A stretch of DNA of 22,119 nt, taken from the NCBI GenBank assembly GCA_038279365.1, contig JAYODI010000092.1, forward strand, positions 1 through 22,119, read 5' to 3'. Shown piece after piece: positions 2,898 to 20,932 of the stretch (within the stretch, counting starts at the first letter, position 1; the number at the start of each line of letters is the position of its first letter). The notes under the pieces were generated by a model that did no database searches, was not told the DNA's origin, and saw nothing but the letters and a program-made list of their open reading frames with translations. The stretch comes from Candidatus Latescibacterota bacterium (lineage in GTDB: Bacteria; Latescibacterota; UBA2968). A program made the position numbers and the translations under genes.

Positions 2898-4561
2898 ACG
2901 GTGGCGTTAAATGTCAATTCGAGGTGGTTGTTCCAATCAACAGCAAAAACTGGGCGCCGTGTATTGGGCGCACTTTTGTTGCCATCGCTATAAGGATTGA
3001 AGGGGGCCACATACCAAATGAGGCGACCGGCTTGGTTTGCGGAGATCGCCCAGTTTTTTGTGGCCACGGTGGTGGCTTGTTCAATGGTGGCTTCTTCGTC
3101 GCCAAATGTAACGGCGGTATTGCCATCAATTGTAAAGGGCGTGCCAATGGGTGCTTCCAGTACGAGTTGGGTGGTGAGTGTGTCGGGTGAATCGGTGGAA
3201 AAGATCAGGCGCGGTTTGTCGCCAAAGATCCAGGTGGCTGTAACGGTGAAGGTTTCATAGTGCACGGTGGCAATGGCTTTGTCACTTTGAATATCTAATT
3301 CCCCTGTGTGAATGGGGTAGGCATCGTCGCCTTTTCTTACCGTGGACCAACCGGGGTTGTGTTTGGATTTGGTGCCAGAAATAATCGTCCCTGCGCTGGT
3401 GTGTGAGAGAAAGAGCAAGGTTTGACGGTCGAGGGCATAGTCGCTGTTGGGCGACATTTCTCGGTTGAGGGCTTTCATGGCCGAAAGGCCCATTGTCCAG
3501 TTGTTTGCTTGCACCACACCCAAGGGCATGGTGATGCGATATTGTCTGTCTTGAAAGGGTTCGGGTAGGGTACTTGCACCGGTTTCCATATGGTCAATTT
3601 CCATATGCAGGCGTGAGAGATATTCAAGACTCATATTTTCAAACTGAACCTGATCCAAATGCAGGCGTAACAAGCCGCGTCCTTGGGGTGAAAGCGCATG
3701 AATGGCAATGCCATAACAACCCAACCCGTGTGGGTTGGCACGTTCATCGGCAAAGGGCAAGGCATGCAGGTGAGCATCCATGAAGTTGCGAAAGAAGGTG
3801 CCACATTTTTCAAAACGTGCGCGATCTACAGCGTTTCGCCAGTGCTGTATGATATACGCACAGCCTGCGGTGAGTGGGGTATACACCAAACTGGGGCCCC
3901 CTTCACGGGCATCGTTGGTGTGTTCTTCAAAATAACCGTCGGGGTGGCCATAAGCAATGAGGCGGTCGTTAAAGGCCGCGGCAGTATTTTGCCAATCTGT
4001 TCGGTTGAGTGCCACGCCCGATTTGTAAATGCCTTCGGCGGCAATGGCCACGTGGTTGATGCCGGTGCCAAAGCCCCTGTTGTCGAGTGCTGGTGAGCGT
4101 TCTTGTAGGTGGTTAAAGTGGCCCAACATATCGTCACCCGATTGGGCCAGCAATGTGGCCCACGCTTGGGTTTCTGATTCGGGCAGGATGTTTTTGAGAC
4201 GTTCGTAGGCAATGACTAGGTGGAGTTGGGATCGGCGCAAAGAGTTGGAAAACCCTTCTTTTTGACGGCCTTCGCCAATGTAGTATTTGACGTTGTCAAA
4301 CAAGCGGCGAACAATGGCAAGCGCGTCTTTGTTGCCATTGGCGGCAAGCAGGCCTAAGACCGAGGCGCTGCAGGGTTGATAGTCGTAGTAATTGACGATC
4401 ATTTCAGCTTTTTTGAGTGCGGGATTGTTTTGGGTGTAAGCGGTGCCTTCGGGGGTAAAGTAGGCCGATGCTTTGGCGAGAATAACCGATTCGATTTTGC
4501 TCTGAATGGTTTTGAGAAACTCGGGGGTAAGGCCTTCTTGTGTTTTGGACAGATCGTACAT
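2894..4561 (-). CDS. Hypothetical protein, possibly heparinase II/III / oligo-lyase-like (alpha-toroid plus beta-sandwich)
   Basis: 555-aa ORF from ATG 4561 with RBS AGAGG. Helical N-half with INH...W...PDGYFEE...SLVY pattern and beta-rich C-half. The ORF is solid but the function is tentative. Confidence 0.6.
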   Translation of the reverse strand: MYDLSKTQEGLTPEFLKTIQSKIESVILAKASAYFTPEGTAYTQNNPALKKAEMIVNYYDYQPCSASVLGLLAANGNKDALAIVRRLFDNVKYYIGEGRQKEGFSNSLRRSQLHLVIAYERLKNILPESETQAWATLLAQSGDDMLGHFNHLQERSPALDNRGFGTGINHVAIAAEGIYKSGVALNRTDWQNTAAAFNDRLIAYGHPDGYFEEHTNDAREGGPSLVYTPLTAGCAYIIQHWRNAVDRARFEKCGTFFRNFMDAHLHALPFADERANPHGLGCYGIAIHALSPQGRGLLRLHLDQVQFENMSLEYLSRLHMEIDHMETGASTLPEPFQDRQYRITMPLGVVQANNWTMGLSAMKALNREMSPNSDYALDRQTLLFLSHTSAGTIISGTKSKHNPGWSTVRKGDDAYPIHTGELDIQSDKAIATVHYETFTVTATWIFGDKPRLIFSTDSPDTLTTQLVLEAPIGTPFTIDGNTAVTFGDEEATIEQATTVATKNWAISANQAGRLIWYVAPFNPYSDGNKSAPNTRRPVFAVDWNNHLELTFNATV

Positions 4562-4639
4562 AACAAACCTCTTGCGTATGTGAGTGTGAACGGTGAACAC
4601 GCAAGGTAGGGTTTTTGTTTGAGGAGTGCAAGTGGTTTG

Positions 4640-5320
4640 CTATTTGCGGAAGAGGTGTAATAAACTGGTGAGATGTGCAAACAAAACGATGGGTACCACA
4701 ACAGCAGGAAGCCAGATGAAAGGGAAGTAAAAAACCGCCACATTGGGGTTATCAATGGCCAATTGTTGGAATGGAAATGGTGCTGAAAGCACGGCGCGGA
4801 TCACAATATTGAGCAGCAAACCCAAACCAATGAGGTTCCAGTAAATGAGGAGGCGCTTGTTGATGCTTCCTCGAAATGCAATGAGTGCCATCAGTGGGCC
4901 CGTCATGCCAGCAATGATATCAAAGTTGTCGCCTTCATAGGTCATCAGACGAGGAATTTGGCCTTCTTGATAAAGCCCAAAAAGGATGATTTCGACGGGA
5001 ATGCGAATGATGTGGATAAAGGTAAGCAAGCGCAAGGGTAGGGCACACAAAACGCGTTGGTGGCGAATGAGAAGGTAAAGCGTTAGCAAGTTGGGTGGGC
5101 CAATGGCCAAGAGAAAACGTGGTGGCCAAGCATCAAAATCGCGATAAAATCCTTGCCAACCCAAAATGCCTTGTAGAATGGTCCAAAGAATAATGATGGG
5201 ATAGATGGATTTGTGAACCGGGCGAGAGCTGATTTTGAGGGCCACACACAGAAACCCAATGGTGAGAAAGGTTGTGAAGGCAAACATGAGAGAGAGGTGA
5301 AGCGGTAGACCATTGATCAT
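4640..5320 (-). CDS. Conserved hypothetical multi-pass membrane protein
   Basis: About 7 TM segments; motifs HIIRIPVE, NFDIIAG and FPFIWLP...VP; ATGA overlap with the upstream gene. Confidence 0.8.
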   Translation of the reverse strand: MINGLPLHLSLMFAFTTFLTIGFLCVALKISSRPVHKSIYPIIILWTILQGILGWQGFYRDFDAWPPRFLLAIGPPNLLTLYLLIRHQRVLCALPLRLLTFIHIIRIPVEIILFGLYQEGQIPRLMTYEGDNFDIIAGMTGPLMALIAFRGSINKRLLIYWNLIGLGLLLNIVIRAVLSAPFPFQQLAIDNPNVAVFYFPFIWLPAVVVPIVLFAHLTSLLHLFRK

Positions 5321-6237
5321 GAAATATCCTGTGTTGTTGTCAGTTCTTTGAGGCGCTTATATGTGGGTGGGTCATCTTTGGCACCGCTAAATACAAACGG
5401 ATAATTTTGGTTAATACGACTGCGCATCAACCCCCAAGAGCAATGATGGGCCACACACAGGCTGGCGACTTCTGCACCGCGGGCGTTGATTTTGGTGTCT
5501 TCGTTACAGACAATGGGTTTGTTAAAGTGTTTGAGTGCGTTGATCCGTTCGGGAACGTCTGTTATGTCGGTGTTGTTGAAGTGGATGATCAAAAAGTCGG
5601 CTGCTTCTGCAATGTGCTCATCCAAACGCCCACTGCCCATCCCACTGGTTGTAACGAGCAGTTGGGGGGCGGTTTGTTTGGCCAGTTTGATGAGTTCTAC
5701 TTGGCCTTGAGGGTCGCGAATGATGTCGTGTGCAAACCCACGGTGTGCATGTTCGTTGGCCACTTCAATCATCACATGGGTCCATTTTTGGTCGCTGAGC
5801 CATTGGGCGGTGTTGATTACACCTTGGCGAATGGCATCGGCATTTTTAAGTATTTGATCTTGGCGTTGGTAATAACAGCCTAAGATAATGGCGATACCGT
5901 GTTTGGCACAGGCGTGAATTACGCGTGCCACGCGGTTGAGGTACGTGGGGCGCAAAGACCCATCGGGTTCAAATGCCGAATTGTGTGCGCCTTCATAACC
6001 TGGCATGCCGCCTTGCAAACACAAAGTGAATGCGCGAATGCCGTGTTTGTGATACTTGGGAATTTGGGTGATAAAGGTGTCTGTGTTGGTTTCGGGATCA
6101 AAGTCTGTGCGGTTGCGATCTTCAAAGGTGGCATTGACCATGCGCACATTCATCAATAACCCTTGGGCAGGGGCGTTGGGGTAGGTGATCTGATGGTTGA
6201 GGTACCAGTCTGTATTTTGAATGGCGATGGCGGTCAT
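5317..6237 (-). CDS. Glycoside hydrolase clan A (GH5-like) TIM-barrel protein
   Basis: EVANE (putative acid/base), IIHFN and KPIVCNED (putative nucleophile); no signal peptide. Confidence 0.65.
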   Translation of the reverse strand: MTAIAIQNTDWYLNHQITYPNAPAQGLLMNVRMVNATFEDRNRTDFDPETNTDTFITQIPKYHKHGIRAFTLCLQGGMPGYEGAHNSAFEPDGSLRPTYLNRVARVIHACAKHGIAIILGCYYQRQDQILKNADAIRQGVINTAQWLSDQKWTHVMIEVANEHAHRGFAHDIIRDPQGQVELIKLAKQTAPQLLVTTSGMGSGRLDEHIAEAADFLIIHFNNTDITDVPERINALKHFNKPIVCNEDTKINARGAEVASLCVAHHCSWGLMRSRINQNYPFVFSGAKDDPPTYKRLKELTTTQDIS

Positions 6238-6365
6238 TTCGCGTGTCTGCTTATGAGGATGATTGGTGGTTTTGAATGTGATAAAGCAAAGTGCCTGACG
6301 GCAAAACGGCAGGGCGTCAATGCGCTCCTCTTTATGATGATGTCATCCCATCCTTGTTGGGTGCA

Positions 6366-6977
6366 CTATAAAGTAAACAGGAAAATCACAAAAGAGAAAA
6401 ATCCCCCTCCTAAAGCAAGCATGCCCCAACGTCGGGTTCCTTTGAGGAGCCACCACATATAGATGCCTGATATCCCCCACAGAATGAAACCTAAAGACAC
6501 CAAATCTATTATGACACACCAGAATGTGTCGAGAATGGTGCCTTGTCGAAATCCACCGCGTGCATGTAAGCCTGTGAAAAATTGATCCCAACGAAAGCGT
6601 TTGTCTTGGACGGTGATGAGTTGTTTTTCTAAGTCATAGACCAAGCGTGTGTTGTTCCAAAAATCATAGGCACTGATCATGATCTGGCGTTTATTTGGGC
6701 GATAGGCACCATATGCACTGGTGATTTCTATATCAAAGTCGTCAAGTACTTGTTTTGCAAAAGGACGCAGTACATCTGCAGACCATTGGTCTGGCGCAGG
6801 CCGGTCATAAGCTTGTTCAAGGCGCGTGGTCCATTGTGGAACGCCATCGTCGTAGAGGTCACCAAAAAAACGATTGTGGGCAAAGGGAATGGCGCTTATG
6901 CCATACATGACAGACCACGGGAGTAAAATGAGTGCAAGATAAAGATGCAGACGTCTGTTTAGGTGGTTAAAGGTCAT
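6366..6977 (-). CDS. PepSY-associated TM helix domain protein (paralog 2)
   Basis: RRLHLYLAL, a soluble middle domain, LH motif (GLHARG) and SGIYMWW...R.WG; start moved to ATG 6977. Confidence 0.8.
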   Translation of the reverse strand: MTFNHLNRRLHLYLALILLPWSVMYGISAIPFAHNRFFGDLYDDGVPQWTTRLEQAYDRPAPDQWSADVLRPFAKQVLDDFDIEITSAYGAYRPNKRQIMISAYDFWNNTRLVYDLEKQLITVQDKRFRWDQFFTGLHARGGFRQGTILDTFWCVIIDLVSLGFILWGISGIYMWWLLKGTRRWGMLALGGGFFSFVIFLFTL

Positions 6978-6990
6978 GGTATGAATTTGC

Positions 6991-7590
6991 TTAGATGGTG
7001 AATAGGAAAAATGTAAAAATAACAACACCTGATCCAATACAAATGCCACCCCATTTGCGGGTGACTTTGAGTTCCCACCACATCCAAAGGCCCGATGCTG
7101 CCCAAAGCACGGTGCTGAGAATGAACAAATCGACCGTTATGGCCCACAAATCATCGCTCAAAAATTTGGTGTCATACCCTTTGCGGCGGTGCATTTGTTC
7201 CAGAAATCCGTTGGTGCGAAATTCTTGTTTTTCGATGCGAATGGTGCGTTTTTGAGAATCGTATTGAATACGCTGCGGGCGGATGGCGTTTCTGCGAGTA
7301 ATGGTGATTTTGTTGTCGAGACTGCCACCTACATTGTGGGCACCTTGCATATCCAAATCGCTCAAGATTTGATCGACAACGACCCAACGTTTGGTATCGG
7401 AAGGGAAATCTACTTCGTAGGGGATCTCGCGTTCCAATGTCCAAGAAACGGGTTGGTGATCATACCAGTTTTCAAAAATGGTATGGTGATTCATCACAAT
7501 GGTGCTTAAGGCATACATCAACACCCAAGGAACAAGGAAGAGTGCGAGATACATATGGATGCGTCGGATGACTATAGAGAACATAATCAT
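6991..7590 (-). CDS. PepSY-associated TM helix domain protein (paralog 1)
   Basis: RRIHMYLAL, MNH, QMHRRKG and SGLWMWW...RKWG. Confidence 0.8.
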   Translation of the reverse strand: MIMFSIVIRRIHMYLALFLVPWVLMYALSTIVMNHHTIFENWYDHQPVSWTLEREIPYEVDFPSDTKRWVVVDQILSDLDMQGAHNVGGSLDNKITITRRNAIRPQRIQYDSQKRTIRIEKQEFRTNGFLEQMHRRKGYDTKFLSDDLWAITVDLFILSTVLWAASGLWMWWELKVTRKWGGICIGSGVVIFTFFLFTI

Positions 7591-10103: not shown

Positions 10104-11150
10104 TCATTGTTCCCAAATGCGCACACCAAAACGACTGAGGTAGATGGGAATGTTTTTGAATAAGGGATTGTCTGACTCAATTTCTTTGATGAGGGCACGT
10201 TTTTCAGAGGCATTTTCACCACATAACAATGTGAGCGACCCACCATCTCCGCCAGCACCGTTGACCTTCCAGCCGATGGCGTGATGTGATTTGGCAATGT
10301 CGATAATGCGTTGTGCATCTTGGCTGATGAGGTATGGGTTGAGGTTGCCTTGTGCGTTTGTGTTGCGCACCATGGTGTCACCCAATGCGTGAAAGTCGTT
10401 GGCAAAGAGGGCATCGCGCGATTGTTCGGCAGTGATGCGCAATGCTTCCAGTTTGGGGTTTTCTGGGCCTGCATCTTCGAGTTCGTGAATGACGCGTTCG
10501 TGTACGTTGGAGGAACTGTGTGATTTGCCTAAGTAGATTAGAACAAGACGGCGCTCGAGTTCCCACCAGGTGGTGTTGGGAATGTGAATTTGGGAGATGG
10601 AGGCGCGAGGGTAGTCAAACATGTCAATGTAATTGATGCCCCCATAAGCAGAGCAAAGTTGATCTTGAATGCCACATTGTTGTTTGAGCATGTCGGTTTC
10701 AACCGATTGGGCAACGTAGGCAATTTCGTGAGGGGTTAGACGCCCGGGAGTGAGTTGGTCAAGGGCGCCAATTAGGGCAACGGTGACCGCTGCAGATGTT
10801 CCTGTGGAGCCTCCTGCGGGGGCCTCGGAAAAGATGGTGACTTGCACTGCGAAATTTTCGGGCACTCCCATGCGCTCAATGGCGGCTTCAAGCAGTGGGT
10901 GACGGTCCCAATTAAGGTTTTCGGGGTGGACGACATATCGCTCGCCATAATTTTCGGCATGAAGCACAATTCTGTCATGGCGATCTATTCGGTTGAAAAC
11001 CTCAATTTGAACTTCGGCATATGGATAGACACCAATGTTAAAGATTTTGCCGTGTTTGGCAAACCACGTGTCTGTCCAGCCCCCGTTGTCACAAATGCGA
11101 ATGGGGGCAACGCTATTGATGATGCGGATGGGATTGGGTGTGTCTGACAT
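10104..11150 (-). CDS. GHMP-family sugar kinase, HddA (D-glycero-alpha-D-manno-heptose-7-phosphate kinase)-like
   Basis: AP.RI...GGWTD, PAGGSTGTSA, GIQDQ...AYGGIN and GWKVNGAGGDGG. Confidence 0.82.
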   Translation of the reverse strand: MSDTPNPIRIINSVAPIRICDNGGWTDTWFAKHGKIFNIGVYPYAEVQIEVFNRIDRHDRIVLHAENYGERYVVHPENLNWDRHPLLEAAIERMGVPENFAVQVTIFSEAPAGGSTGTSAAVTVALIGALDQLTPGRLTPHEIAYVAQSVETDMLKQQCGIQDQLCSAYGGINYIDMFDYPRASISQIHIPNTTWWELERRLVLIYLGKSHSSSNVHERVIHELEDAGPENPKLEALRITAEQSRDALFANDFHALGDTMVRNTNAQGNLNPYLISQDAQRIIDIAKSHHAIGWKVNGAGGDGGSLTLLCGENASEKRALIKEIESDNPLFKNIPIYLSRFGVRIWEQ

Positions 11151-11177
11151 ATTTTAACTTTTGACAGATGATTGCAT

Positions 11178-11915
11178 TTAATCTGCGTATGTGTCTTCGG
11201 GCGTTTGTGTGATCAGTGTGCCCACATCTTCACCTTCTACAATGCGCTGAATAAATCCTTTGGGTTCAAAGTCAAATACATGAATGGGCAAGTGGTGATC
11301 GCGTGCCAATAAGACGGCGGTTTGGTCTAAGGCCCCTAAATTTTCACGCACAACCGTGTTGTAGTTGATGGTGTGATAGCGTTTGGCACTGCTGTTTTTG
11401 TTGGGGTCGTCGGTGTAGAGGCCATTGGTTTTGTTTTTGGCAAAGAGAATGGCATCGGCTTGTACTTCGAGTGCCCGTTGCACACCTGGGTAATCGGTGG
11501 TCACATAGGGGTTGCCAATGCCACCAGCAAAAATGACGATGTAACCTTTGTCCATGTGACGACGCGCAACAAGGCGGATAAAGGGTTCAGCCACAGCATT
11601 GATGGGAATGGCGGTCATGACGCGCACTTCGGCATCGCTTTTGGCGTTGAGCACGCCGCGCAACATCAGGGCGTTGATAATGGTGCCAAGCATGCCAATG
11701 TTGTCAGCTTCGGCACGGTCTATGCCCCATTGGGCCCCCAAACTGCCGCGCAAGATGTTGCCACCACCAATTACAATGCCAATTTCAACCCCACGTCCAT
11801 GTAGATCGAGAATTTCATCTGCAATGTGCTCCAATGATTCTGGATCAAAACCTGATTCACGCGGGCCAGAAATGGCACCGCCACTGAGTTTGAGCAGTAC
11901 GCGTTTGTATCTCAT
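11178..11915 (-). CDS. pyrH: Uridylate (UMP) kinase
   Basis: YKRVLLKLSG, IVIGGGNILRG, AD.IGMLGT.IN, GIGNPYVTTD and GLYT.DP; RBS GGGAG. Confidence 0.93.
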   Translation of the reverse strand: MRYKRVLLKLSGGAISGPRESGFDPESLEHIADEILDLHGRGVEIGIVIGGGNILRGSLGAQWGIDRAEADNIGMLGTIINALMLRGVLNAKSDAEVRVMTAIPINAVAEPFIRLVARRHMDKGYIVIFAGGIGNPYVTTDYPGVQRALEVQADAILFAKNKTNGLYTDDPNKNSSAKRYHTINYNTVVRENLGALDQTAVLLARDHHLPIHVFDFEPKGFIQRIVEGEDVGTLITQTPEDTYAD

Positions 11916-11963
11916 TTTTTTAATTCTCCCTAATGGTATCGTCTGGTGTTATTGGCAGGGCTA

Positions 11964-11991
11964 AATATAGGTTGTGTTCCAATGGTGTCAA
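11964..11991 (-). promoter_or_regulatory. Sigma70-type promoter upstream of pyrH
   Basis: On the minus strand: TTGACA (11991-11986), 16-nt spacer, TATATT (11969-11964). Confidence 0.7.
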
Positions 11992-12094
11992 TGAATTTCC
12001 CAGCGTGTGGAGATGCCTCATCTTTTAATTGACTTTTACGCACAATTTCACAACTTCTATGGAACGCTTTAGACGTTTACCTGAAAGGAAGAGG

Positions 12095-14086
12095 ATGAGT
12101 GCTTTATCTGATAACATAGACAAGGAAGCAAGACAAGATGTTTTGCCAATGGCACAAGGCATCACAATAAGAGCCATTGTGTTGGGAACGTTTATCTCTA
12201 TTATTGTCAATCTGTTGCCCGCCTATTCGGCTTATATTGTGCATTCTTCACGCATGGTTTTTGGGCATTTGCCAATGGCCACAATGGTGGTTTTTACGTT
12301 GGTGGCTTGGCCCATTAATTTGTTGTTTAAAGTGCTCAACCCCAAGTGGGTTTTGAACCGGGGTGAAATGGTTGTGGTTTTTTGTATGGGCTGGATCAGT
12401 GCGGCCATTCCGGCTGCCAATTTTATGGGGTTGTTGATTGGTGCCATCGCGGCCCCTTTTTATTATGCCACAGCAGAAAATCGGTGGAGTGAATATTTGC
12501 TTGAATATTTGCCTCGGTGGGCGATCCCCACCAATGATCGTGGGCAGATGACATGGTTTTTTGAGGGCAAACCACCGGGTACACCCATTCCTTGGGATGT
12601 TTGGTTTGGGCCTTTGCTTTGGTGGGGGTCTTTTTTGGTGGCGCTGGCCTTGGTGAGTGTGGCCATCGTGGCCATTTTGCGCAAGCAGTGGGTAGAGCGC
12701 GAACGTTTGCCCTTTCCACTGGCCGAAGGTCCTTTGGCGATGACGGAAGAAGGCCGTGGTTCTGGCGATTATGTCTTGTTTCACAATCGGTTGTTTTGGA
12801 TCGGTGTGGCCATTCCCTTTTTTATTATTTGTTGGAATATTGCGGGTTATTTTTGGCACTTATTGCCGTCCATCGATTTGTTTACCCAATTTCATACAGT
12901 TTCTTTGGGGCGTGGGTTTCCGTCTATTCAAATGAAGTTAAACTTTTTTATTTTGGGTTTTGCGTTTTTTACAAATCTCGATATTCTGTTTAGCTTGTGG
13001 TTTTTTTATTTGATAGGTGTGATCCAAACGGGAGTGTTTGATCGTTTTGGATATACCATTGGTGCGTCTGATATTTGGGGTTCCAATGGTGGGGCTGCGA
13101 TGGGGTGGCAAGCTGAAGGGGCATTTATAGCCTTTACACTTACGGGGTTGTGGATGGGGCGCGAGCATTTGAAGCAGGTGTGGCGCAAAGGACTTTATAA
13201 CGACCCAGACATTGATGACAGCAATGAGCTGATGTCTTATCGCAATGCGCTTATTGCAGGTGCTGTAGGTATTTTGTTTATGTTTTTTTGGTTGTGGCGC
13301 TCGGGCATGTCGCCTGTGGTGGCTGGGGTGTTTTTGATGGCGTTGTTGCTCATGACCATTGGTGTAAGCCGCATTGTGGCAGAATCGGGGCTGATGTATG
13401 CGCGTATGCCCATTACACCGCAAAGTTTTACGTTTTATACCATTGGCATCAGCAATATGGAATCGCCCAGTGCCGCGGCTTTGGGCTTGTCTTATAGCAC
13501 ATTTGGGTTGGGCAATACATTTGGAGCCACCACGTTGGCACATATTGCGCGTTTGGGTGCTGAGTTGCATTTAAAGACGCGTTCTTTGTTTGCTGTTACC
13601 ATTTTTGCATTGGTGTTGTCGCTGGTGGTGTCTGCCGTGTTTACGTTGTATTTGGGCTATGCGCACGGGGCTTATAATTTTAATGTTTATACCTTTAACA
13701 GTGGCAACAGAGTGGTTTTTGACAATGTGGTCCAGAAGTTACAAACGCCATTCGATACCAGTTTTGACCGTCTTATGTTTTTGGGTATTGGTGCCAGCGT
13801 AGCCAGTTTGTGTAGCTTTTTGCGGTATCGCTTTTTGTGGTGGCCTTTGAGCCCTATTGGTCTGACGGTCTTTACTACGGGTGTGATACAACGCCAAGTG
13901 TCTATGATTTTTTTGGCTTGGCTGATCAAGTTTGTGCTGCTTAAAATTGGGGGAATTACGTTATATCGGCGCGCACACCCCTTGTTTTGGGGGTTGTTGT
14001 TGGGCTATGTGGTGGGCATTGGTTTGATTTTTGTTGTGGATACATTTTTCTTTATGGGACAAGGTCATTTGGTGCATCAATGGTAA
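12095..14086 (+). CDS. Large polytopic membrane protein, DUF6785/DUF6784 (OPT-like putative transporter)
   Basis: About 663 aa with many TM helices. GITIRAIVLG, RKQWVERERLPFPLA, RIVAESG, RYRFLWWPL.PIG and K.GG..LYRRA.P.FWGL are recognised from memory of this family. RBS AAGGAAGAGG before ATG 12095. Confidence 0.72.
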   Translation: MSALSDNIDKEARQDVLPMAQGITIRAIVLGTFISIIVNLLPAYSAYIVHSSRMVFGHLPMATMVVFTLVAWPINLLFKVLNPKWVLNRGEMVVVFCMGWISAAIPAANFMGLLIGAIAAPFYYATAENRWSEYLLEYLPRWAIPTNDRGQMTWFFEGKPPGTPIPWDVWFGPLLWWGSFLVALALVSVAIVAILRKQWVERERLPFPLAEGPLAMTEEGRGSGDYVLFHNRLFWIGVAIPFFIICWNIAGYFWHLLPSIDLFTQFHTVSLGRGFPSIQMKLNFFILGFAFFTNLDILFSLWFFYLIGVIQTGVFDRFGYTIGASDIWGSNGGAAMGWQAEGAFIAFTLTGLWMGREHLKQVWRKGLYNDPDIDDSNELMSYRNALIAGAVGILFMFFWLWRSGMSPVVAGVFLMALLLMTIGVSRIVAESGLMYARMPITPQSFTFYTIGISNMESPSAAALGLSYSTFGLGNTFGATTLAHIARLGAELHLKTRSLFAVTIFALVLSLVVSAVFTLYLGYAHGAYNFNVYTFNSGNRVVFDNVVQKLQTPFDTSFDRLMFLGIGASVASLCSFLRYRFLWWPLSPIGLTVFTTGVIQRQVSMIFLAWLIKFVLLKIGGITLYRRAHPLFWGLLLGYVVGIGLIFVVDTFFFMGQGHLVHQW

Positions 14087-14139: not shown

Positions 14140-14192
14140 GTTTGTGTTAAGACTTTATGATATCTGGTGCTTATTTGGATGGGAGAATGAAT

Positions 14193-14999
14193 ATGGCTGT
14201 TAAAAAGGTTTTAATTACGGGTGTTTACGGGCTTATTGCGGGTGCATTATTTGATCATTTAAATGGTCAGCCCGATCAATATGAAGTGTATGGTTTGGCA
14301 CGGCGCAAGGTGTCTTCAGATCGCGTGGCCAAAGGGCAAGTGGTGGATGTACCGCAAGAGCGGTTTTTCTTAGCCGACATGTCCGATTTGGGTGTGGTGC
14401 AAGATGCGGTGCGCGGTATGGATGTGGTGGTGCATATGGCGGCCAATCCCGCGCCAGATGCCCCTTGGGAAGCGATTTTGAATAGCAATATGATTGGGGG
14501 TTACAACGCATTTGAAGCATGTCGCTTAGAAGGTGTGCCACGAATTGTGTATGCCAGCTCTATTATGGCCACGTGGGGGTATCAACACGATGAGCCTTAT
14601 AAGTCGATTAAAGAAGGACGCTTTGATGATGTGCCCAAAGATTTTCATATTGTCAAACATACCGACCCCGTGCGCCCAACGGAGCCTTATTCGGCCAGCA
14701 AAGTGTGGGGGGAAGCGTTGGCAAGGACTTATGCCGACGTACATGGTTTGTCGTGTTTGTGCATGCGCATTGGGTGGGTGAATGCACAAGATTCACCGGG
14801 TACATTGGCCAGTGGGGCATTTTGGTGTAGCCAGCGCGATATTGTGCAATTGGCAGAAAAATGTGTGAATGCGCCTGCCGATTTGAAGTTTGATATTTTT
14901 TATGGCTTGTCTGAATGTGAATATCGCTGGGCAGATATTTCCCATGCCAATGAGGTGCTGGGGTATGCGCCACAAGATCGGGCGGAGGATCGCATTTGA
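14193..14999 (+). CDS. NAD(P)-dependent epimerase/dehydratase family, uronate dehydrogenase-like (copy 1)
   Basis: TGVYGLIAG, VVVHMAA, YASS, YSASK and RIG; GGAG 7 nt before ATG 14193. Confidence 0.88.
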   Translation: MAVKKVLITGVYGLIAGALFDHLNGQPDQYEVYGLARRKVSSDRVAKGQVVDVPQERFFLADMSDLGVVQDAVRGMDVVVHMAANPAPDAPWEAILNSNMIGGYNAFEACRLEGVPRIVYASSIMATWGYQHDEPYKSIKEGRFDDVPKDFHIVKHTDPVRPTEPYSASKVWGEALARTYADVHGLSCLCMRIGWVNAQDSPGTLASGAFWCSQRDIVQLAEKCVNAPADLKFDIFYGLSECEYRWADISHANEVLGYAPQDRAEDRI

Positions 15000-15799
15000 C
15001 ACAAAAGGTGTTGGTGACGGGTGTCAATGGTTTGATCGGCGGAGAAGTGTTTGCATATTTGGCCGATTTGGGTGATGCATTTGACGTATATGGTTTAGAC
15101 CGTTCTGTTTTGCCATCTGCACGTGTTTCGAAAGGCCGAACAGCAGGTGTGCCACAAACGCGGTTTTTTGAAGTGGATCTGACCCATTTTGACCGCGTGA
15201 CGTCTGCTTGTAAAGGCATGGATGTGGTGGTGCATTTGGCGGCCAATCCCGACCCAGATGCAGATTGGGATGATTTGCTCAAGAGCAATATTATGGGCAC
15301 GTATCACGTTTTTGAGGCATGTCGTTTGGCGGGTGTGAAGCGTGTGGTTTATGCCAGTTCGGGGCAAGCGATTTTGGGATATCGCCTTGATGAGCCTTAT
15401 AAGTCGTTGGTTGAAGGGCGATTGGACGATGTACCCCAATCATTTGCCAAAGTGGATCACACCATGCCTACACGTCCGCTAAACGCATATGGATCTACCA
15501 AAGTATGGGGCGAGGCGTTGGCGCGCACCTATGCTGATGCACATGGCCTGTCTTGTTTGTGTATTCGTTTTGGATGGGTGATTGCAAATGATGCGTTGCC
15601 TTACCCACATGGGCGTGATGTGTGGTGCAGTTGTCGCGATGCGGTGCAAATGGTTACGCGATGTGTGATGGCCCCAAGTGATTTGAAGTTTGATATTTTT
15701 CACGCATTTTCACAAAGCGATTATTTGTGGAAAGACATTGATCATGCCCGCGATGTTTTGGGATATATCCCCCAAGACAATGTTGCAAATTTTGTGTAG
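14996..15799 (+). CDS. NAD(P)-dependent epimerase/dehydratase family, uronate dehydrogenase-like (copy 2)
   Basis: TGVNGLIGG, VVVHLAA, YASS and YGSTK; TTG start overlapping the upstream TGA, with GGAGG RBS. Confidence 0.88.
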   Translation: MTQKVLVTGVNGLIGGEVFAYLADLGDAFDVYGLDRSVLPSARVSKGRTAGVPQTRFFEVDLTHFDRVTSACKGMDVVVHLAANPDPDADWDDLLKSNIMGTYHVFEACRLAGVKRVVYASSGQAILGYRLDEPYKSLVEGRLDDVPQSFAKVDHTMPTRPLNAYGSTKVWGEALARTYADAHGLSCLCIRFGWVIANDALPYPHGRDVWCSCRDAVQMVTRCVMAPSDLKFDIFHAFSQSDYLWKDIDHARDVLGYIPQDNVANFV

Positions 15800-15925
15800 G
15801 GGCGAGGTCCTCTCGCCCTGTGTTGGATTTTGTTGAACGCGATCTCCGCACCCAATATGTGTTTTGGTCGCGATCCCCATGTTCGACGTTGCAAATTTTT
15901 CGTAGGGGCGCGGTCTCCGCGCCTG
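15782..15925 (+). repeat. Two GTAG-family REP-like palindromes in direct orientation, 106 nt apart
   Basis: GTAG-GGGCGAG-GTCCT-CTCGCCC (15796-15818) and GTAG-G-GGCGCGG-TCT-CCGCGCC (15902-15923), each preceded by GTTGCAAATTTT. Confidence 0.75.
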
Positions 15926-15953
15926 ATATCTGCCCATTTGAAGGAGCCAAAAT

Positions 15954-16736
15954 ATGAAGGTGATGATCACAGGTGTATATGGTTTAATTGCTGGTGCGTT
16001 ATACAAACATTTGGCCCAGTTGCCACAATATGATGTCTATGGATTGGCACGGCGTCGGCAAGATTCTGAGCGTGTGGCCGATGGAGAGGGTGTGGATGTG
16101 CCCGAAGAGAAATTTACATTGTCAGATATGTCTGATGTGAATGTGTTAATAGAAGCTTTTAAAGGCATGGATGTGGTGGTGCACTTGGCGGCCGATCCCA
16201 GTGGTGGTGGTGGGTGGGAAAGCGTGCTGAAGAGCAATATTGTGGGGGCTTACAATGTGTTTGAAGCGTGTCGGTTGGCGGGCGTGCCACGCATAGTGAA
16301 TGCCAGTTCTATTCAAGCCTCTTCGGGATATCGCACCATTGAGCCTTATAAATCATTTGCTGATGGCACGTATAAGGGTGAACGCCCTATTGTGGATCAT
16401 ACGATGCCCACACGCCCGATGAATATTTATGCTTCGAGTAAAGTGTGGGGTGAAGCTTTGGGGCGCACCTATGCCGATGTGCATGGCATGTCGGTGTTGT
16501 GTGTGCGCATTGGTTGGGTGGTTAAAGAAGACAAACCACGTCCCAATGGCGCCGATATTTGGTGTAGCAAACGCGATATTGTGGCCATTCACGAATGTTG
16601 TATCAATGCACCCAAAGATGTGCGTTATGGCATTTTTTATGGGATGTCAGACAATCAATATCGGTGGGTTGATCTTGACCATGCCCGTAATGTATTGGGC
16701 TTTGTGCCTCAAGATCGTGCAGAAGATCGCACGTAA
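15954..16736 (+). CDS. NAD(P)-dependent epimerase/dehydratase family, uronate dehydrogenase-like (copy 3)
   Basis: TGVYGLIAG, VVVHLAA, NASS, YASSK and RIG; RBS AAGGAG. Confidence 0.88.
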   Translation: MKVMITGVYGLIAGALYKHLAQLPQYDVYGLARRRQDSERVADGEGVDVPEEKFTLSDMSDVNVLIEAFKGMDVVVHLAADPSGGGGWESVLKSNIVGAYNVFEACRLAGVPRIVNASSIQASSGYRTIEPYKSFADGTYKGERPIVDHTMPTRPMNIYASSKVWGEALGRTYADVHGMSVLCVRIGWVVKEDKPRPNGADIWCSKRDIVAIHECCINAPKDVRYGIFYGMSDNQYRWVDLDHARNVLGFVPQDRAEDRT

Positions 16737-16795: not shown

Positions 16796-16831
16796 AAGCG
16801 TCCTTTTGGGCTCGCCCATTGGGCGCTTTTT
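16796..16831 (+). terminator. Probable intrinsic terminator after the SDR cluster
   Basis: AAGCGTCC...GGGCGCTT outer stem with an inner TGGGC/GCCCA stem, ending in a T-run (16827-16831). Confidence 0.5.
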
Positions 16832-16931: not shown

Positions 16932-18251
16932 ATGAGAGATTTACAACATACGGTAAAAGAAATTTTGACGTTTATCCAAGATCGGTTGTATTTCAATCGG
17001 GCCGATTTGGAAGTCAAGGGCGAAGCGCATAATGCGGCTTTGTTGTTGAGTACTTTAACGGGGTTGGTGGGGGGCAAAGCCCTCATTGTGGGTGAGCCAG
17101 GTTTGGGCAAAACCACAACGGCAGAATACGTGGGTGCATTGTTGTATCGTTTGCCTTTGGGCATGATTTGGGAGGCGGAGGTGAGTGGGCACCCCGAGCA
17201 AACAGAAGAGAAGATTGTGGGGCGGCCCAATTTGGGAGCTTTAAATCGAGGCGAAGAAGATGTGGTGTGGTCGGCGTTTGCGCGTTTGCCCGTGAAGGTG
17301 GTGGATGAAATCAATCGTTTGCCAGAGACCAAGCAGAGTTTGATTTTAAATGGTGTTGATCGGGGCAACTGGAGTTATTTAAACCAGATGCAGATCAATG
17401 ATGAATTTTGTTTGTTTGCAACTGCCAATTATCAAGACCGGGGTACAAATACCATTGTGGTGCCTCTCTTAGATCGGTTTGATGTGATGGTTGAATCAAA
17501 GCACCCGGGGCCCAATTTGTCATGGTTGATTGGCACCGAAGCCTCTCCGGGTAATTTGTTGCGCGATCAGTCTTGTGAAAAGGCCATTCAAACACATTTT
17601 TTACAAGCTGACAATTGGGATGTGATTGAGGCCGAGTGTGCCACATATGGGCAAGGTGTGACCGAACGATTGGGGGTGCCCACACTGGGGCGCGAAGATC
17701 GGTTAACCATTCGGAAAGAGATGGATGCCTTGCCCTTTGATGTGGATGCCAGTGCATTTATGAGAACCTTTTTGGCAGAGTTGTCTTTTTGTTGCAAATA
17801 TGGCCAAAAGCGCACGCACGAAATTTGTGGAGATGGATGTCATTACACGGGCTATTTGTGTTATGAGGTGGCCACCTGTGTGTCGAATCGGTTGCCTATT
17901 TCTGTGAGGCGATATGCCCAAGCGTTGGCTTGGTTGTTGGGTGATTCTGTGGTGGATATGGCACACGTGCGAACCATTTTGCCCTATGTGTGTGCCCATC
18001 GCATACAATGGCGCGACGAAGAAACATCCAATGAGCGACGAGCAGATGCCTTGCCGATTTTTAGAGCACGTGAAGCCGTGCGGCGTGTATTGCGGCGGTA
18101 TACTGAGCAAGGGGATCGCATTCAGTCGGCTTTGGTGGCGGCCAATCGTATTATGAAGGGCGAAAATGTACAACCCGTTGAAGGGGAACACCCCATCTAT
18201 ATCGAAATTATGCGCGATTTGGGCAAAGAGCCAAATCACCCCGTGTTCTAA
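16932..18251 (+). CDS. MoxR-like AAA+ ATPase
   Basis: Walker A GEPGLGKT, Walker B VVDEINR, sensor I FATAN, Arg finger LLDRF, sensor-II-like SNR, and V..ILPYV.AHRI. Confidence 0.9.
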   Translation: MRDLQHTVKEILTFIQDRLYFNRADLEVKGEAHNAALLLSTLTGLVGGKALIVGEPGLGKTTTAEYVGALLYRLPLGMIWEAEVSGHPEQTEEKIVGRPNLGALNRGEEDVVWSAFARLPVKVVDEINRLPETKQSLILNGVDRGNWSYLNQMQINDEFCLFATANYQDRGTNTIVVPLLDRFDVMVESKHPGPNLSWLIGTEASPGNLLRDQSCEKAIQTHFLQADNWDVIEAECATYGQGVTERLGVPTLGREDRLTIRKEMDALPFDVDASAFMRTFLAELSFCCKYGQKRTHEICGDGCHYTGYLCYEVATCVSNRLPISVRRYAQALAWLLGDSVVDMAHVRTILPYVCAHRIQWRDEETSNERRADALPIFRAREAVRRVLRRYTEQGDRIQSALVAANRIMKGENVQPVEGEHPIYIEIMRDLGKEPNHPVF

Positions 18252-18252
18252 G

Positions 18253-18261
18253 TGGTATGAT
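18253..18261 (+). promoter_or_regulatory. Possible extended -10 internal promoter
   Basis: TG-G-TATGAT directly after the ATPase stop codon. Confidence 0.3.
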
Positions 18262-18366
18262 AATATCTATTCATGATGTGGTTTGAGAGACCGATTGTTG
18301 ACTGCTGATTTTATGAACATTTGAGTCCGTGCGTTTAAATGGCGGTATCTGTTTTGAGGTGGTTTT

Positions 18367-19143
18367 TTGAAAAATCCATTTACAGAATTTGATGCGATCT
18401 CAGAATCTGCGCCCCCAGTGCCCCACGCAGTTGAACAAACAGTGATGCGTGGTATGTTGAGTACATCACAAAATCCTTTTATAACATTTGAACCTAAGGA
18501 AGATGTGTCTGTTTTGCCTATGGACGATATTTTGGCTTCTCACGCAACGGCCATGACGCAGCTGACAGATGCATATAAATTGCTCATTGAACGCTGTGTG
18601 GGCGATAGTGTTTGGCGTGAAGATCGCGAATCTATTGAACGCACGTATGCTGTGGCTTTACAGATTGCAAATGAAACGATGTGGCAGCCTGAAGATGTTT
18701 CTACATTTGGTGAATATGCCTTGCAAAAAGATGATCCCGATTTTTTTCTGATTGGGCCTTTGGGTTTGTTTTTGTCGGCTTTTTGCAATGCCTCCGATTT
18801 GACAGATATGACACTCAATTTGGGTGGGCAAGATTTGCGTGTGCCATTGGTCGGATACCGTTTGCGCGACGGGTTGGTGTTGACGGTTGTGGGCAACTTG
18901 GGTGATTTGGCGGGCATTTCTCTCGAAGGGGGACACTTGAAGGTAACTGGCTCAGTGGGGCGATATTTGGGGGCGGGTATGATGGCCGGAAAAATAGAGG
19001 TGTCGGGTGACGTGGGGCGTTTTGTGGGAGAGCAAATGACGGGCGGCGAGATTCAAGTGATGGGGCGATTGGGTGGTTTGGGCAAACCGCAAGGCGGTTT
19101 GGTGCGTCATCGCAAGCAAGTGGTTTTTGGCCGTGAAGGATAG
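18367..19143 (+). CDS. Hypothetical protein with C-terminal GXGXG (FwdC / glutamate synthase C-terminal-like) beta-helix repeats
   Basis: 19-residue repeats LTVVGNLGDLAGISLEGGH / LKVTGSVGRYLGAGMMAGK / IEVSGDVGRFVGEQMTGGE / IQVMG; TTG start with GAGGTGG RBS. Confidence 0.8.
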   Translation: MKNPFTEFDAISESAPPVPHAVEQTVMRGMLSTSQNPFITFEPKEDVSVLPMDDILASHATAMTQLTDAYKLLIERCVGDSVWREDRESIERTYAVALQIANETMWQPEDVSTFGEYALQKDDPDFFLIGPLGLFLSAFCNASDLTDMTLNLGGQDLRVPLVGYRLRDGLVLTVVGNLGDLAGISLEGGHLKVTGSVGRYLGAGMMAGKIEVSGDVGRFVGEQMTGGEIQVMGRLGGLGKPQGGLVRHRKQVVFGREG

Positions 19144-19194
19144 AGGTCATGTATCCGAGCCAATCGTAATTCTGGCAATTTTAGGATGTGATTT

Positions 19195-20724
19195 ATGAAC
19201 CTGCAGGCTGTGATCAGCAAAGTTTGGCCCGAGGTGCGCAAGCGCCATTTGTTTCCCGAATTGCCCACACCAAAAATTGCAGAATCGGGAGATGAGGCGG
19301 TTTCCATTCAGATGAAGGGCAAAACCATTTTGCTGGACCAAGAAGTTTTGGAAGCATTGGCCAAAGTTATGCCTGTAGAAGATGCCGCATCGGCCATGCT
19401 GGATCATGGGGTGTCTCACCATACGGTATGTCCTTGGGATTTTGAAACACATCTGAAATTGTACGCACAGTTGAAGCCTGTTTTGATGGATGGTGAGGTG
19501 GTTAAGCAGGTGGTTAATTATTTTATGGATGTGGTGGCCGACACCCATGCGGTGCGTGAGCGCGATTCAAAAATGGCAGATGTGTACAAACAGTTGCCTT
19601 CTGATCCTGTGTCGGACGTGGTAAGGGCTTTGTATCAGCGGCTCTGGGGTAAAGATCTGGGTGTGAAAGATGTTGTCGAATCAGATCGTTTGGCACGTAT
19701 TCCTTATTTGGACGCCGCACATTGGGGTGAGAGCATTCGTTCTTTTGCACAGGTAATGGGACCGCTGATTGCCAAAATGGGCGATGGCGAAGGCGGGCAG
19801 GGATCTGGTGGCATGATGGGGGATCATGGACTGGAACAGTATTCGGCGGGTGAAATAGAAGATGCTTTGGAGGCATTTTCTGAACAAGGTTTTTATGCCT
19901 TTCGGGCAATGGTGGATGATTTTAAAGATGAGTTGGAAAAAAAGGGTATGATGCCCCATATGGGACGAGGCAAGGGAACGCCTTCAGATGCAGATATGTT
20001 GTACTATATGAAGCGCGCGGCTGCGGTGCGGTTGCCTGTGCATACAATGCCTTTGGAAAAGGTGGGTGGTGAACAGCCTTTTTCTCACATCCCTTGGGAA
20101 ATTGGTAAGCCCGTTCAAGAAATTGATGTGTGGACAAGTTTTGGAAAAGTCTTGCCGGGTGTGTCTCAAATGTGGAAGTGGAAAGCTGGGGAGACTCACG
20201 GTGATGATGATGGGATTCCCGATTGTTTGATTGTGATCGATTCTTCGGGAAGTATGACCGACCCAAACAAAGAGCTGTCTCACGCAGTGCTGGGGGCGGG
20301 ATGCGCTGCCGATGCTTATTTGCGCAAAGGCCGTCGGGTTGCGGTTTATAATTTTAGCGATGCGCAATCAGGTGGCAAAGAAATATTGGATTTTTGTAGA
20401 GATCGAGACAAGGTTTTTTGGGTACTGTGCCGATATTTTGGGGGGGGGACGTCTTTGGATGTGCCTGATTTGGCCTCTTTGCTTAAAGAAAAAGTGGATG
20501 TGTTTTTGATTACGGATATGCAAATTACCAATTTGGATGCGCTGACGCAGTTTTTGGCACAGTCTCATAATCGGGTGACAGCGGTGCATATTGGTCGCAA
20601 TGAAGAAGTGGAACTGTTTCGTGCACATGTACAAAATTTGGAACATATTTGTGTTTATGCCGTTGAAAAAACCGAAGATATTCCAGATATTGTCATCGGC
20701 GAGGTTCGGGCCCGGTTTCGATAA
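19195..20724 (+). CDS. VWA-domain protein with N-terminal zincin-like (degenerate HExxH) domain
   Basis: MIDAS DSSGS (residues 349-353), GGGT and LITD; N-terminal DHGVSHH..CPWD...NYFMD; Gly-rich linker GEGGQGSGG. Confidence 0.85.
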   Translation: MNLQAVISKVWPEVRKRHLFPELPTPKIAESGDEAVSIQMKGKTILLDQEVLEALAKVMPVEDAASAMLDHGVSHHTVCPWDFETHLKLYAQLKPVLMDGEVVKQVVNYFMDVVADTHAVRERDSKMADVYKQLPSDPVSDVVRALYQRLWGKDLGVKDVVESDRLARIPYLDAAHWGESIRSFAQVMGPLIAKMGDGEGGQGSGGMMGDHGLEQYSAGEIEDALEAFSEQGFYAFRAMVDDFKDELEKKGMMPHMGRGKGTPSDADMLYYMKRAAAVRLPVHTMPLEKVGGEQPFSHIPWEIGKPVQEIDVWTSFGKVLPGVSQMWKWKAGETHGDDDGIPDCLIVIDSSGSMTDPNKELSHAVLGAGCAADAYLRKGRRVAVYNFSDAQSGGKEILDFCRDRDKVFWVLCRYFGGGTSLDVPDLASLLKEKVDVFLITDMQITNLDALTQFLAQSHNRVTAVHIGRNEEVELFRAHVQNLEHICVYAVEKTEDIPDIVIGEVRARFR

Positions 20725-20813: not shown

Positions 20814-20932
20814 ACCTTTAGACTGTCTTTGATAGGCATTTATTTGTATATTACGCCCGTTCTCGTCCGCTGGGAACCCGTTGGGAAAGCCCTTTCGGGC
20901 GGACAATGATCATAATATGATGAGGAGCGAGT

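Follow-up and report, generated by a model that had tools for sequence, protein, structure and literature searches.

A co-inherited AAA+ ATPase, tagged GXGXG beta-helix protein and VWA/MIDAS protein in Latescibacterota: a candidate protein-remodelling machine

The contig JAYODI010000092.1 of Candidatus Latescibacterota bacterium (GenBank assembly GCA_038279365.1; the whole analysed stretch of 22,119 nucleotides, nt, is denoted the window below) contains three adjacent genes, hereafter the trio, that encode an AAA+ ATPase, a protein with a GXGXG beta-helix (the GXG protein), and a protein that combines a helical N-terminal domain with a VWA domain carrying a metal ion-dependent adhesion site (MIDAS) (Table 1). 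The gaps between these genes are 115 nt (ATPase-GXG) and 51 nt (GXG-VWA), and the list of open reading frames (ORFs) gives exactly the coordinates of the co-oriented three-gene set that was singled out in a preliminary description of this DNA made from the sequence alone. The TTG start codon of the GXG gene has GAGGTG six bases upstream. The motifs GHPEQTEEK, H..H...CP.D and GLFLSA..N that were quoted in the preliminary description are all present in the window proteins, and the gene annotation agrees that there are no fwd, fmd or glt genes in the window.

Table 1. Positions of the trio genes, of motifs and predicted domains in their products, and of two adjacent features in the window
Feature	Position (nt)	Strand	Residues	Remarks
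Terminator-like hairpin	16813-16825	+		5 GC pairs and a T run; follows the third SDR gene and precedes the ATPase gene
AAA+ ATPase gene	16932-18251	+		ORF of 439 amino acids (aa)
Walker A, GEPGLGKTT	17091-17117	+	54-62	Invariant in 13 homologues; kept in the archaeal relative
Lid Cys/His cluster	17790-17879	+	C287, C299, C303, H304, C316	Invariant in 13 bacterial homologues
GXGXG beta-helix (GXG) gene	18367-19143	+		ORF of 258 aa; TTG start
Disordered N-terminus with the tag			1-50	Structural model
Tag copy 1, NPFTEF	18373-18390	+	3-8	N-terminal extension, in part of the family only
Tag copy 2, NPFITF	18472-18489	+	36-41	Ancestral copy; F38 and F41 invariant
Helical domain of the GXG protein			52-142	Structural model
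GXGXG right-handed beta-helix			147-254	Structural model
VWA/MIDAS gene	19195-20724	+		ORF of 509 aa
Helical N-domain			about 1-280	Structural model
N-domain motif H71-G-x-x-H75...C79-P-W-D82	19405-19440	+	71-82	Invariant in 12 homologues
Conserved segment			281-339	Structural model, low confidence
VWA domain			340-509	Structural model
MIDAS motif DxSxS	20239-20253	+	D349, S351, S353	T419 and D441 complete the site
Repeat of an 11-nt unit	20867-20887			Score 35; downstream of the trio

The trio is co-inherited as one unit in at least three bacterial phyla. A scan of species genomes (one genome per species) with an alignment of the ATPase yields 342 relatives, of which the best 80, from Latescibacterota, Thermodesulfobacteriota and Entotheonellaceae, were kept, and the trio genes in these loci were identified by hmmsearch with custom profiles among six-frame ORFs. 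The order ATPase-GXG-VWA on one strand is found in 72 of the 80 loci (in two of these, the VWA gene is split), and in 3 more, the ATPase and GXG genes are followed by the contig end. The remaining 5 loci contain the ATPase gene alone; 2 of these are contig ends and 3 come from complete genomes in which GXG and VWA genes are found together elsewhere. In the latter (G006, G014 and G022 of genus g5, loci L022-L024), the ATPase gene is located 84 kilobases (kb) to 3 Mb from the GXG-VWA pair and adjoins ABC transporter genes; its product is 77-78% identical to the window copy. At the family level, 7 of 9 loci have the trio in this order, mostly followed by the gene for an FKBP isomerase, and the other two (G006 and G014) have GXG-VWA-FKBP without the ATPase. 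A strong match to the GXG protein (E <= 1e-60) is present in 24 of 41 related genomes, and in genus g7, the matches are weak (20 bits) and correspond to other GXGXG proteins.

In the 50 loci from outside Latescibacterota, the median identity to the window proteins is 57.9% for the ATPase (n=50), 35.7% for the GXG protein (n=49) and 45.8% for the VWA protein (n=43). A conserved triplet with a fast-evolving middle gene, as anticipated in the preliminary description, is thus apparent from both the gene order in 72 of the 80 loci and the GXG protein having the lowest median identity. Clustering of the ORFs from the 80 loci indicates that, among the 30 most widespread families other than the trio, none is common to Latescibacterota and the other phyla; two small ORF families overlap between them in a few loci, which are chance overlaps. 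The flanks consist of housekeeping genes that differ between the phyla; in Thermodesulfobacteriota, the recurrent neighbors are dxs, a gene for a TlyA-like methyltransferase, DUF4416, YicC, guanylate kinase (gmk), and genes for an HD protein and a methyltransferase. A gene for a client enzyme is linked to the trio in none of the 80 loci.

The model of the GXG protein (predicted local distance difference test, pLDDT, 82.2) ends in a beta-helix, and a search with the family profile identifies solved FwdC chains with E-values from 6e-25 to 1e-15, the alignments covering the beta-helix part only, which bears out the stand-alone GXGXG protein of the preliminary description. A Foldseek search of the PDB started with the model ranks FwdC/FhcC at the top (probability 0.99-1.0) at an E-value of about 0.2 and retrieves no matches at E <= 0.001. 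Models matched below their cut-offs include the GXGXG Pfam model (PF01493; 20.5 bits, cut-off 32.5) and NF042910 (30.4 bits, cut-off 340). The likeness to FwdC, FhcC and the C-terminal domain of glutamate synthase (PF01493) is confined to the C-terminal 100 residues, which are homologous; in contrast to these proteins, the GXG protein is stand-alone, has its own helical domain behind a disordered N-terminus that bears the tag, falls below the cut-offs, and is encoded outside fwd, fhc or glt operons, in linkage with an AAA+/VWA pair.

These comparisons bear on the possibility that the middle gene encodes an ordinary metabolic GXGXG subunit (FwdC/FhcC or domain 3 of glutamate synthase) that lies by chance between the genes of an unrelated ATPase/VWA pair. 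Some relatives indeed have such names in the annotation of the Joint Genome Institute (JGI), “glutamate synthase domain-containing protein 3” or “formylmethanofuran dehydrogenase subunit C”, and there are the weak matches to FwdC models. However, the FwdC model TIGR03122 matches residues 154-233 only, with 41.9 bits against a cut-off of 130.65, so that the GXG protein is not a bona fide FwdC, an option considered in the preliminary description; furthermore, the N-terminal tag and the helical domain are foreign to FwdC, and no fwd or glt genes are present in the window or in the flanks of its relatives. Above all, the GXG gene adjoins the ATPase gene in 75 of the 80 loci (72 with the full trio and 3 at contig ends). 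Because of this linkage count, a chance placement of a metabolic gene is largely refuted and appears hardly probable at all.

The sole conserved feature of the GXG protein outside the folded domains is an N-terminal tag with the consensus NPFxEF. The tag, in the loosely written form N-P-F-x-x-F, is detected in 73 of 75 GXG ORFs and is located at the extreme N-terminus in most homologues; the window protein and its nearest relatives possess an extension with a second copy, and the matches in genera g2, g3, g6 and g8 begin at residue 35-36, past this extension. The phenylalanines F38 and F41 are conserved without exception across 20 sequences that are 27-74% identical to the window GXG protein, and the archaeal relatives contain an F-x-x-F/Y motif at the same position. 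The family as a whole is large: its profile matches 4424 library representatives at E <= 0.001, of which 121 remain at E <= 1e-30. Many members of the wider family are 280-540 aa long and contain extra turns of the beta-helix or two tandem modules. In P0350, a protein from a metagenome-assembled genome (MAG) of SAR324, the C-terminus of the ATPase runs directly into the tag and the GXG protein; this is a single record on a 3-kb contig, which could be either a natural fusion or the product of a sequencing error or a lost stop codon. Five long matches to the family profile that were inspected for other fusions are tandem duplications of the module, and none is joined to the ATPase or VWA protein.

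The ATPase matches the Pfam models AAA_5 (30.1 bits, cut-off 22) and AAA_lid_2 (29.6 bits, cut-off 22.7). The score with AAA_3 (PF07726), the model of MoxR proper, is 19.8 bits, below the cut-off of 27; the relatives of the ATPase are named “MoxR-like” by JGI. The NCBIfam models yield no useful match for either the ATPase or the VWA protein. In addition to the Walker A motif, the Walker B motif VVDE (D125-E126) is invariant in 13 homologues. The ATPase is present in a single copy per genome and has at least 922 homologous proteins at E <= 0.001 (at least 672 in the case of the VWA protein), among which those with names include proteins from Thermodesulfobacteriota, Syntrophaceae, Tectomicrobia and MAGs labelled as Gemmatimonadota. 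The cysteines and the histidine of the lid form a possible metal site. In the archaeal array-type ATPase described below, only H304 of this cluster remains, so that the cluster is specific to the lineage of the window. The presence of an AAA+ protein with AAA_lid_2, a VWA/MIDAS partner and a third protein is also typical of the class I chelatases (BchI/BchD/BchH and CobS/CobT/CobN). The trio differs from these in that no gene for the large porphyrin-binding BchH/CobN subunit is found in the 80 loci, in the score of the ATPase with the BchI model TIGR02030 (16.7 bits, cut-off 466.95), and in the VWA protein, which does not contain the AAA-like N-terminal half of the chelatase partner.

In the model of the VWA protein (pLDDT 76.5), the C-terminal domain adopts the VWA fold. 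The top VIA match of this domain is the VWA domain of NorD (9qh8_G, Z 13.3, root-mean-square deviation 3.5, with 183 residues aligned), and a Foldseek search with the protein yields 29 PDB matches at E <= 0.001, to VWA domains, with E-values of about 1e-4. At the sequence level, the Pfam model VWA_2 scores 18 bits with the window protein, below the cut-off of 27, and matches 12 of 12 family members at E <= 1 (the best at 6.1e-6); the family profile has no meaningful match in the PDB. The MIDAS is complete, and its five residues (D349, S351, S353, T419 and D441) do not vary among 12 homologues and 3 archaeal relatives. Hence both the fold match and the complete, invariant site agree with the MIDAS-containing VWA domain originally proposed for this protein. 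The segment that connects the two domains contains many invariant residues despite the low confidence of the model.

The nature of the N-terminal domain, which had been described as “zincin-like”, is more equivocal. The full invariant stretch is D70-H-G-x-x-H75-x3-C-P-W-D82, and in the window protein it reads H71-G-V-S-H75, with glycine in the position of the catalytic glutamate of HExxH, invariant across 12 homologues. In the archaeal array-type VWA proteins, the motif HEIGH is aligned at H71-H75 in 3 of 3 cases, so that the N-domain looks like a derivative of an HExxH domain from which the glutamate was lost in the lineage of the window, as judged from the motif and from an alignment with 25-27% identity. 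No Pfam model matches the N-domain in any of the 12 members examined, and no peptidase model matches the archaeal array-type VWA proteins. An Atlas search with residues 1-280 shows DUF2201_N clusters to be the nearest (0.89, a sub-threshold lead); in fold searches with the whole protein, the VWA domain fills the list of matches and the N-domain is barely sampled. The DUF2201_N model (PF13203) has no matches in the genome of the window and a single match across 121 Latescibacterota genomes, and an hhalign comparison of the VWA protein with this sole DUF2201_N protein (L162) covers the VWA part only and is non-significant (E 0.04, probability 1.3%). The VWA protein resembles the DUF2201_N + DUF2201 proteins, L162 among them, in its layout, a putatively zincin-like N-domain with a VWA-like domain behind it, and in being encoded beside an AAA+ gene, and differs from them in that PF13203 is not matched and glycine replaces the glutamate of HExxH. 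The original “zincin-like” assignment has the Glu-less motif, its alignment with the archaeal HExxH and the Atlas lead behind it, and is weakly confirmed at best. L162 (G109:C42) itself is the only bona fide DUF2201_N protein in the 121 Latescibacterota genomes; it contains HExxH and a VWA-like C-terminus, and its gene is located directly downstream of another AAA+ gene, forming a separate two-gene system.

Pairs of a MoxR-type AAA+ ATPase and a VWA protein are two-part chaperones each of which serves one enzyme, such as Rubisco, nitric oxide reductase or carbon monoxide dehydrogenase. As in NorQ/NorD, CbbQ/CbbO, CoxD/CoxE and RavA/ViaA, the AAA+ gene of the trio is accompanied by the gene for a VWA protein, and in this VWA protein, as in the partners of the NorQ/NorD type, a linker joins the helical N-terminal part to the VWA domain, which is C-terminal and has the full MIDAS. 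The differences from the NorQ/NorD type are the third, always linked gene for a tagged beta-helix protein between the two, the lack of a client-enzyme gene nearby, the ATPase that is below the AAA_3 cut-off and unmatched to solved MoxR proteins by sequence, and the putatively zincin-derived N-domain of the VWA protein. It could be surmised that the trio inserts a metal into, or helps to mature the cofactor of, a metalloenzyme encoded elsewhere, as a chaperone analogous to NorQ/NorD, CoxD/CoxE and CbbQ/CbbO. The beta-helix protein would in this case be added as a docking subunit, imitating the C-terminal beta-helix of FwdC or GltS on a TIM-barrel enzyme. The closest solved VWA domain is, after all, that of NorD; the invariant Cys3-His cluster in the lid of the ATPase and the H-x3-H-x3-C motif in the N-domain of the VWA protein could both bind metal; and FwdC/FhcC, with which the beta-helix shares homology, are structural subunits in metalloenzyme complexes. 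Nevertheless, a candidate client gene is linked to the trio in 0 of the 80 loci, the cysteine cluster is missing from the archaeal relative and hence lies outside the common mechanism, and the archaeal arrays of 10-14 beta-helix paralogues are hard to square with a single metalloenzyme client. On balance, such a metal-directed role appears unlikely.

A metagenome scan with an alignment of the longer forms of the GXG protein identifies 61 loci, in 48 of which two or more ORFs of the family are located side by side on one strand (the array ORFs run from stop to stop, and a few may be pieces of one gene). The longest arrays, in L101 and L136, consist of 14 GXG genes each. An ATPase or VWA gene is found in 6 of the 61 loci, many of the contigs being short: the order is ATPase, 3 GXG genes, VWA and 7 GXG genes in L113, and ATPase, 5 GXG genes and VWA in L102; in L131, L141 and L146, the VWA gene adjoins GXG arrays, and L153 is an ordinary short trio. 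A single 23-kb contig contains both L105 and L109. On contigs of sufficient length, the arrays are accompanied by a single divergent AAA+ gene and a single VWA gene. Five of the array contigs carry archaeal hallmark genes in the flanks, encoding MCM, TFIIB, FttA, class I LysRS and XPD/RFC-like proteins, and the nearest relatives in the Atlas include clusters from Altarchaeota, Microcaldota and Nanobdellota. The paralogues in an array have an N-terminal motif that is common within a contig and differs between contigs, e.g., ...F-G-K-Y-K-x-E-E... or M-K-L-T-x-I-x-x-E-E-Y. At the end of the archaeal beta-helix array in L113, there is also a gene for a group II intron reverse transcriptase/maturase (L113:11850-13235, minus strand).

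The arrays bring to mind diversifying systems and, with them, the possibility, raised in the preliminary description, that the trio is a conflict (defence) system of the MoxR-vWA ternary type, in which the beta-helix protein would act as a variable sensor or effector. The published ternary systems (Kaur, Burroughs, Iyer, Aravind, eLife 2020, PMC7159879), as far as the available part of that paper goes, share with the trio an operon in which genes for a MoxR-like ATPase and a vWA protein are combined with that for a conserved third component. In the trio, this component is the fastest-evolving one, and in the archaeal relatives, it is multiplied to arrays of up to 14 paralogues; within Latescibacterota, the trio is patchy, being found in 35 of 168 genomes. 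In the published systems, however, the third component is VMAP, iSTAND or FtsH rather than a GXGXG beta-helix protein, again in the available part of the source, the main text of which includes, to that extent, no mention of GXGXG, beta-helix or FwdC. Other lines of evidence also argue against a conflict system. In contrast to the ternary systems as described there, the trio has no effector or effector-associated (EAD) domains recognized by Pfam, evolves slowly and is flanked by housekeeping genes, in both phyla; it is present in single copy, with a constant place and neighbors across the family, and the ATPase is 58% identical across phyla. Searches of the window proteins against PADLOC give nothing below an E-value of 0.03, and a tblastn search with the ATPase gives no matches in 72,556 plasmids or 50,697 phages, collections that are biased to cultured hosts. 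The idea of a conflict system therefore finds no support in this lineage, where a defence role of the trio is unlikely, and as an explanation of the trio it is highly improbable. With respect to the archaeal arrays, these data leave room for a diversifying role.

The relationship with archaea is a distant one. The archaeal ATPase is 31% identical to the window ATPase and the archaeal VWA proteins are 25-27% identical to the window VWA protein. In a quick maximum-likelihood tree of the ATPase (82 rows, incomplete search, support solely by the Shimodaira-Hasegawa-like approximate likelihood ratio test, midpoint root), the window ATPase belongs to a clade of 28 rows with a support of 99 that consists of proteins labelled as Latescibacterota, together with those from two MAGs labelled as Gemmatimonadetes and one unlabelled MAG. 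The ATPases of Thermodesulfobacteriota form a separate group of 50 rows with a support of 94, two Latescibacterota ATPases (L049 and L050) are placed outside both groups, and the archaeal ATPase is on a very long branch. The cross-domain transfer suggested in the preliminary description finds no support in the 31% identity to the archaeal ATPase, against 58% to bacterial relatives, or in the position of the window ATPase inside a well-supported Latescibacterota clade; nor does the supposed archaeal likeness hold for two of the three motifs, given that the GHPEQTEEK and H..H...CP.D forms are missing from the archaeal ATPase and VWA relatives. A recent transfer from archaea is accordingly not supported by the sequence comparisons.

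Considering all these features, there is, in our estimate, a slightly better than even chance that the trio is one self-contained, chromosomal, vertically inherited AAA+/VWA protein-remodelling machine, with the beta-helix protein as its client or adaptor. It looks like a housekeeping protein-handling machine rather than a defence system. The VWA protein would serve the ATPase ring as an adaptor, in the manner of NorD and NorQ. In the NorQ-NorD complex, according to the available part of the published description (PMC13036017), an extension of the VWA protein enters the NorQ pore, and by analogy, segment 281-339 of the trio VWA protein is the likely piece gripped by the ATPase ring; the mechanism would then probably resemble that of NorQ/NorD in the grip of the ring on such an extension. 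At the same time, the VWA protein would hold the beta-helix protein, probably via the disordered N-terminal tag, which would dock either at the MIDAS, a plausible site because the tag usually has an acidic residue, or at the Glu-less, putatively zincin-derived N-domain. The peptidase-like domain would thus probably be a binding module, and not a working protease, in the lineage of the window. ATP hydrolysis would then remodel, load or release the beta-helix protein, which might be either the dedicated client or an adaptor that presents a substrate, i.e., an unlinked cellular target. The data fit the beta-helix protein as the recognised partner: its gene is the only other one that is co-inherited, it has a conserved motif on a disordered arm, and it multiplies while the ATPase and the VWA protein stay single. 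The role of “dedicated client, scaffold or variable third component” proposed for it in the preliminary description fits both the conserved tag and the multiplication in archaeal arrays.

A prediction of the complex between the VWA and GXG proteins gives a score of 0.57 (0.63, 0.57 and 0.55 in individual runs), against 0.00 for the best of 3 controls, with a pLDDT of the partner of at least 76 and an agreement between the runs in at least 0% of the contacts. Of 157 solved complexes and 215 mismatches, 116 and 2, respectively, reach the mark for the complex score; at scores of 0.60 or lower, only 18 of the 157 solved complexes reach it, along with both mismatches, and these calibration counts hold roughly here because custom alignments were used. 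Of the modelling of this pair that was proposed in the preliminary description, then, the score stands above the controls, and no contacts are given.

Several observations weigh against the interpretation of the trio as a protein-remodelling machine with a tagged partner. The predicted VWA-GXG complex, with the scores given above, amounts to weak support. Copy 2 of the tag in the window protein contains no acidic residue inside the motif. Within the archaeal arrays, the conservation of the first 45 residues and of the rest of the protein is 66/54%, 42/37%, 30/30%, 51/45%, 42/37% and 47/39%; this small N-terminal excess implies that the tag is a short motif rather than a long conserved leader, and the notion that the tag is much more conserved than the body of the protein was rejected for the small difference within arrays.

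The distribution of the module, which is not universal, is also a concern. The genomes with the ATPase number 27 of 30 in group f1, 3 of 3 in f6, 4 of 22 in f2 and 0 of 76 in f4, which, with the other groups, gives the 35 of 168 Latescibacterota genomes cited above; in genus g7, a member of f2, the ATPase is present in 0 of 15 genomes despite 92-100% completeness. Going by these counts, the module is dispensable, which weakens its case as a core housekeeping system. With regard to the ATPase, the family profile has no PDB matches at E <= 0.01, a search of the PDB with the single sequence yields only BchI/ChlI at a non-significant E-value of 0.9, and there is no significant sequence match to any solved MoxR protein (NorQ, CbbQ or RavA). 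The “intact MoxR-like ATPase” of the preliminary description is therefore borne out as regards the AAA+ core, the lid and the intact Walker A and B motifs; the affiliation with MoxR is less secure, with neither the AAA_3 model nor solved MoxR proteins matched. Finally, RNA-library contigs that are at least 99% identical to the window (204-343 nt; four libraries from four studies) map to the ATPase gene (two runs) and to the VWA gene (two runs), and a further contig of 151 nt, from one of those RNA runs, to the start of the FKBP gene, outside the trio. None of them maps to the GXG gene or bridges two genes, so that co-transcription of the trio is not shown; such libraries can hold DNA, and these contigs are a weak hint of trio transcription.

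On a more tentative note, bacteria and archaea may have in common an ancient tag-directed system for the handling of proteins, of which the trio would be the bacterial form with a single cargo, a scenario that we regard as doubtful but worth spelling out. In such a system, beta-helix proteins with an F-x-x-F/Y tag may be captured by the zincin-derived/VWA subunit and worked on by the AAA+ ring; in archaea, the subunit with the intact HExxH may cleave the tag, and the cargo genes may have multiplied to arrays of 14 or more. The whole could be a maturation or assembly line for beta-helical blocks, possibly those of filaments or surface structures, or of a diversified recognition set. The lineage of the window may then have retained a dead protease, a single cargo (with a doubled tag) and a conserved house function.

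Compared with the two-part chaperones, the trio is an AAA+/VWA pair with a third, obligatory subunit, a tagged beta-helix protein, and with no enzyme gene nearby; its ATPase is kept at 58% identity across phyla, and there is a much-expanded archaeal counterpart. Our literature search, the coverage of which excluded most subscription journals and supplements, found no paper describing a MoxR/VWA pair with a GXGXG beta-helix protein. If true, the capture by the tag would represent a new class of substrate recognition by AAA+ proteins and suggest a role for thousands of unannotated “GXGXG” proteins, given the 4424 representatives of the family mentioned above. The probably dead protease in bacteria versus the intact HExxH in archaea provides a direct experimental handle.

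The neighbors of the trio in the window are housekeeping genes. On the 3' side, the trio is followed by the genes for the FKBP isomerase and YhbY, and the other genes of the window include purD, those for a GHMP kinase, a protein of the amino-acid-kinase family and a DUF6785/DUF6784 protein, and three tandem short-chain dehydrogenase/reductase (SDR)/epimerase paralogues. The hairpin upstream of the trio, which the preliminary description took as its boundary, exists, 77 nt past the stop of the preceding gene; the count of terminator-like sites in the region (8) does not exceed that in shuffled sequences (5.2 +/- 2.7). The “repeat array” downstream of the trio comes down to 1.9 copies of the 11-nt unit. 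Rfam and tRNA scans of the window yield no matches. The stretch is present in the DNA runs of 9 studies (P1-P9), comprising metagenomes of estuary, marine, marsh, lagoon and outdoor origin, and one run among these may be the source of this DNA.

A run of four ORFs on the minus strand (positions 2894-7049 of the window), with lengths of 568, 226, 306 and 227 aa, is without Pfam matches at E <= 1e-5; genes for an MFS transporter and a PepSY_TM-like protein flank it. At positions 10104-14086, the genes for the GHMP kinase and the amino-acid-kinase-family protein adjoin purD and are followed by the gene for the 685-aa DUF6785/DUF6784 protein; the amino-acid-kinase/purD pair remains close to the trio in the relatives. 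The three SDR/epimerase paralogues (280, 267 and 260 aa; positions 14157-16736, plus strand) are located directly 5' of the trio, and at the same place in the relatives, there is one copy in L016 and L017 and two copies in L019 and L020.

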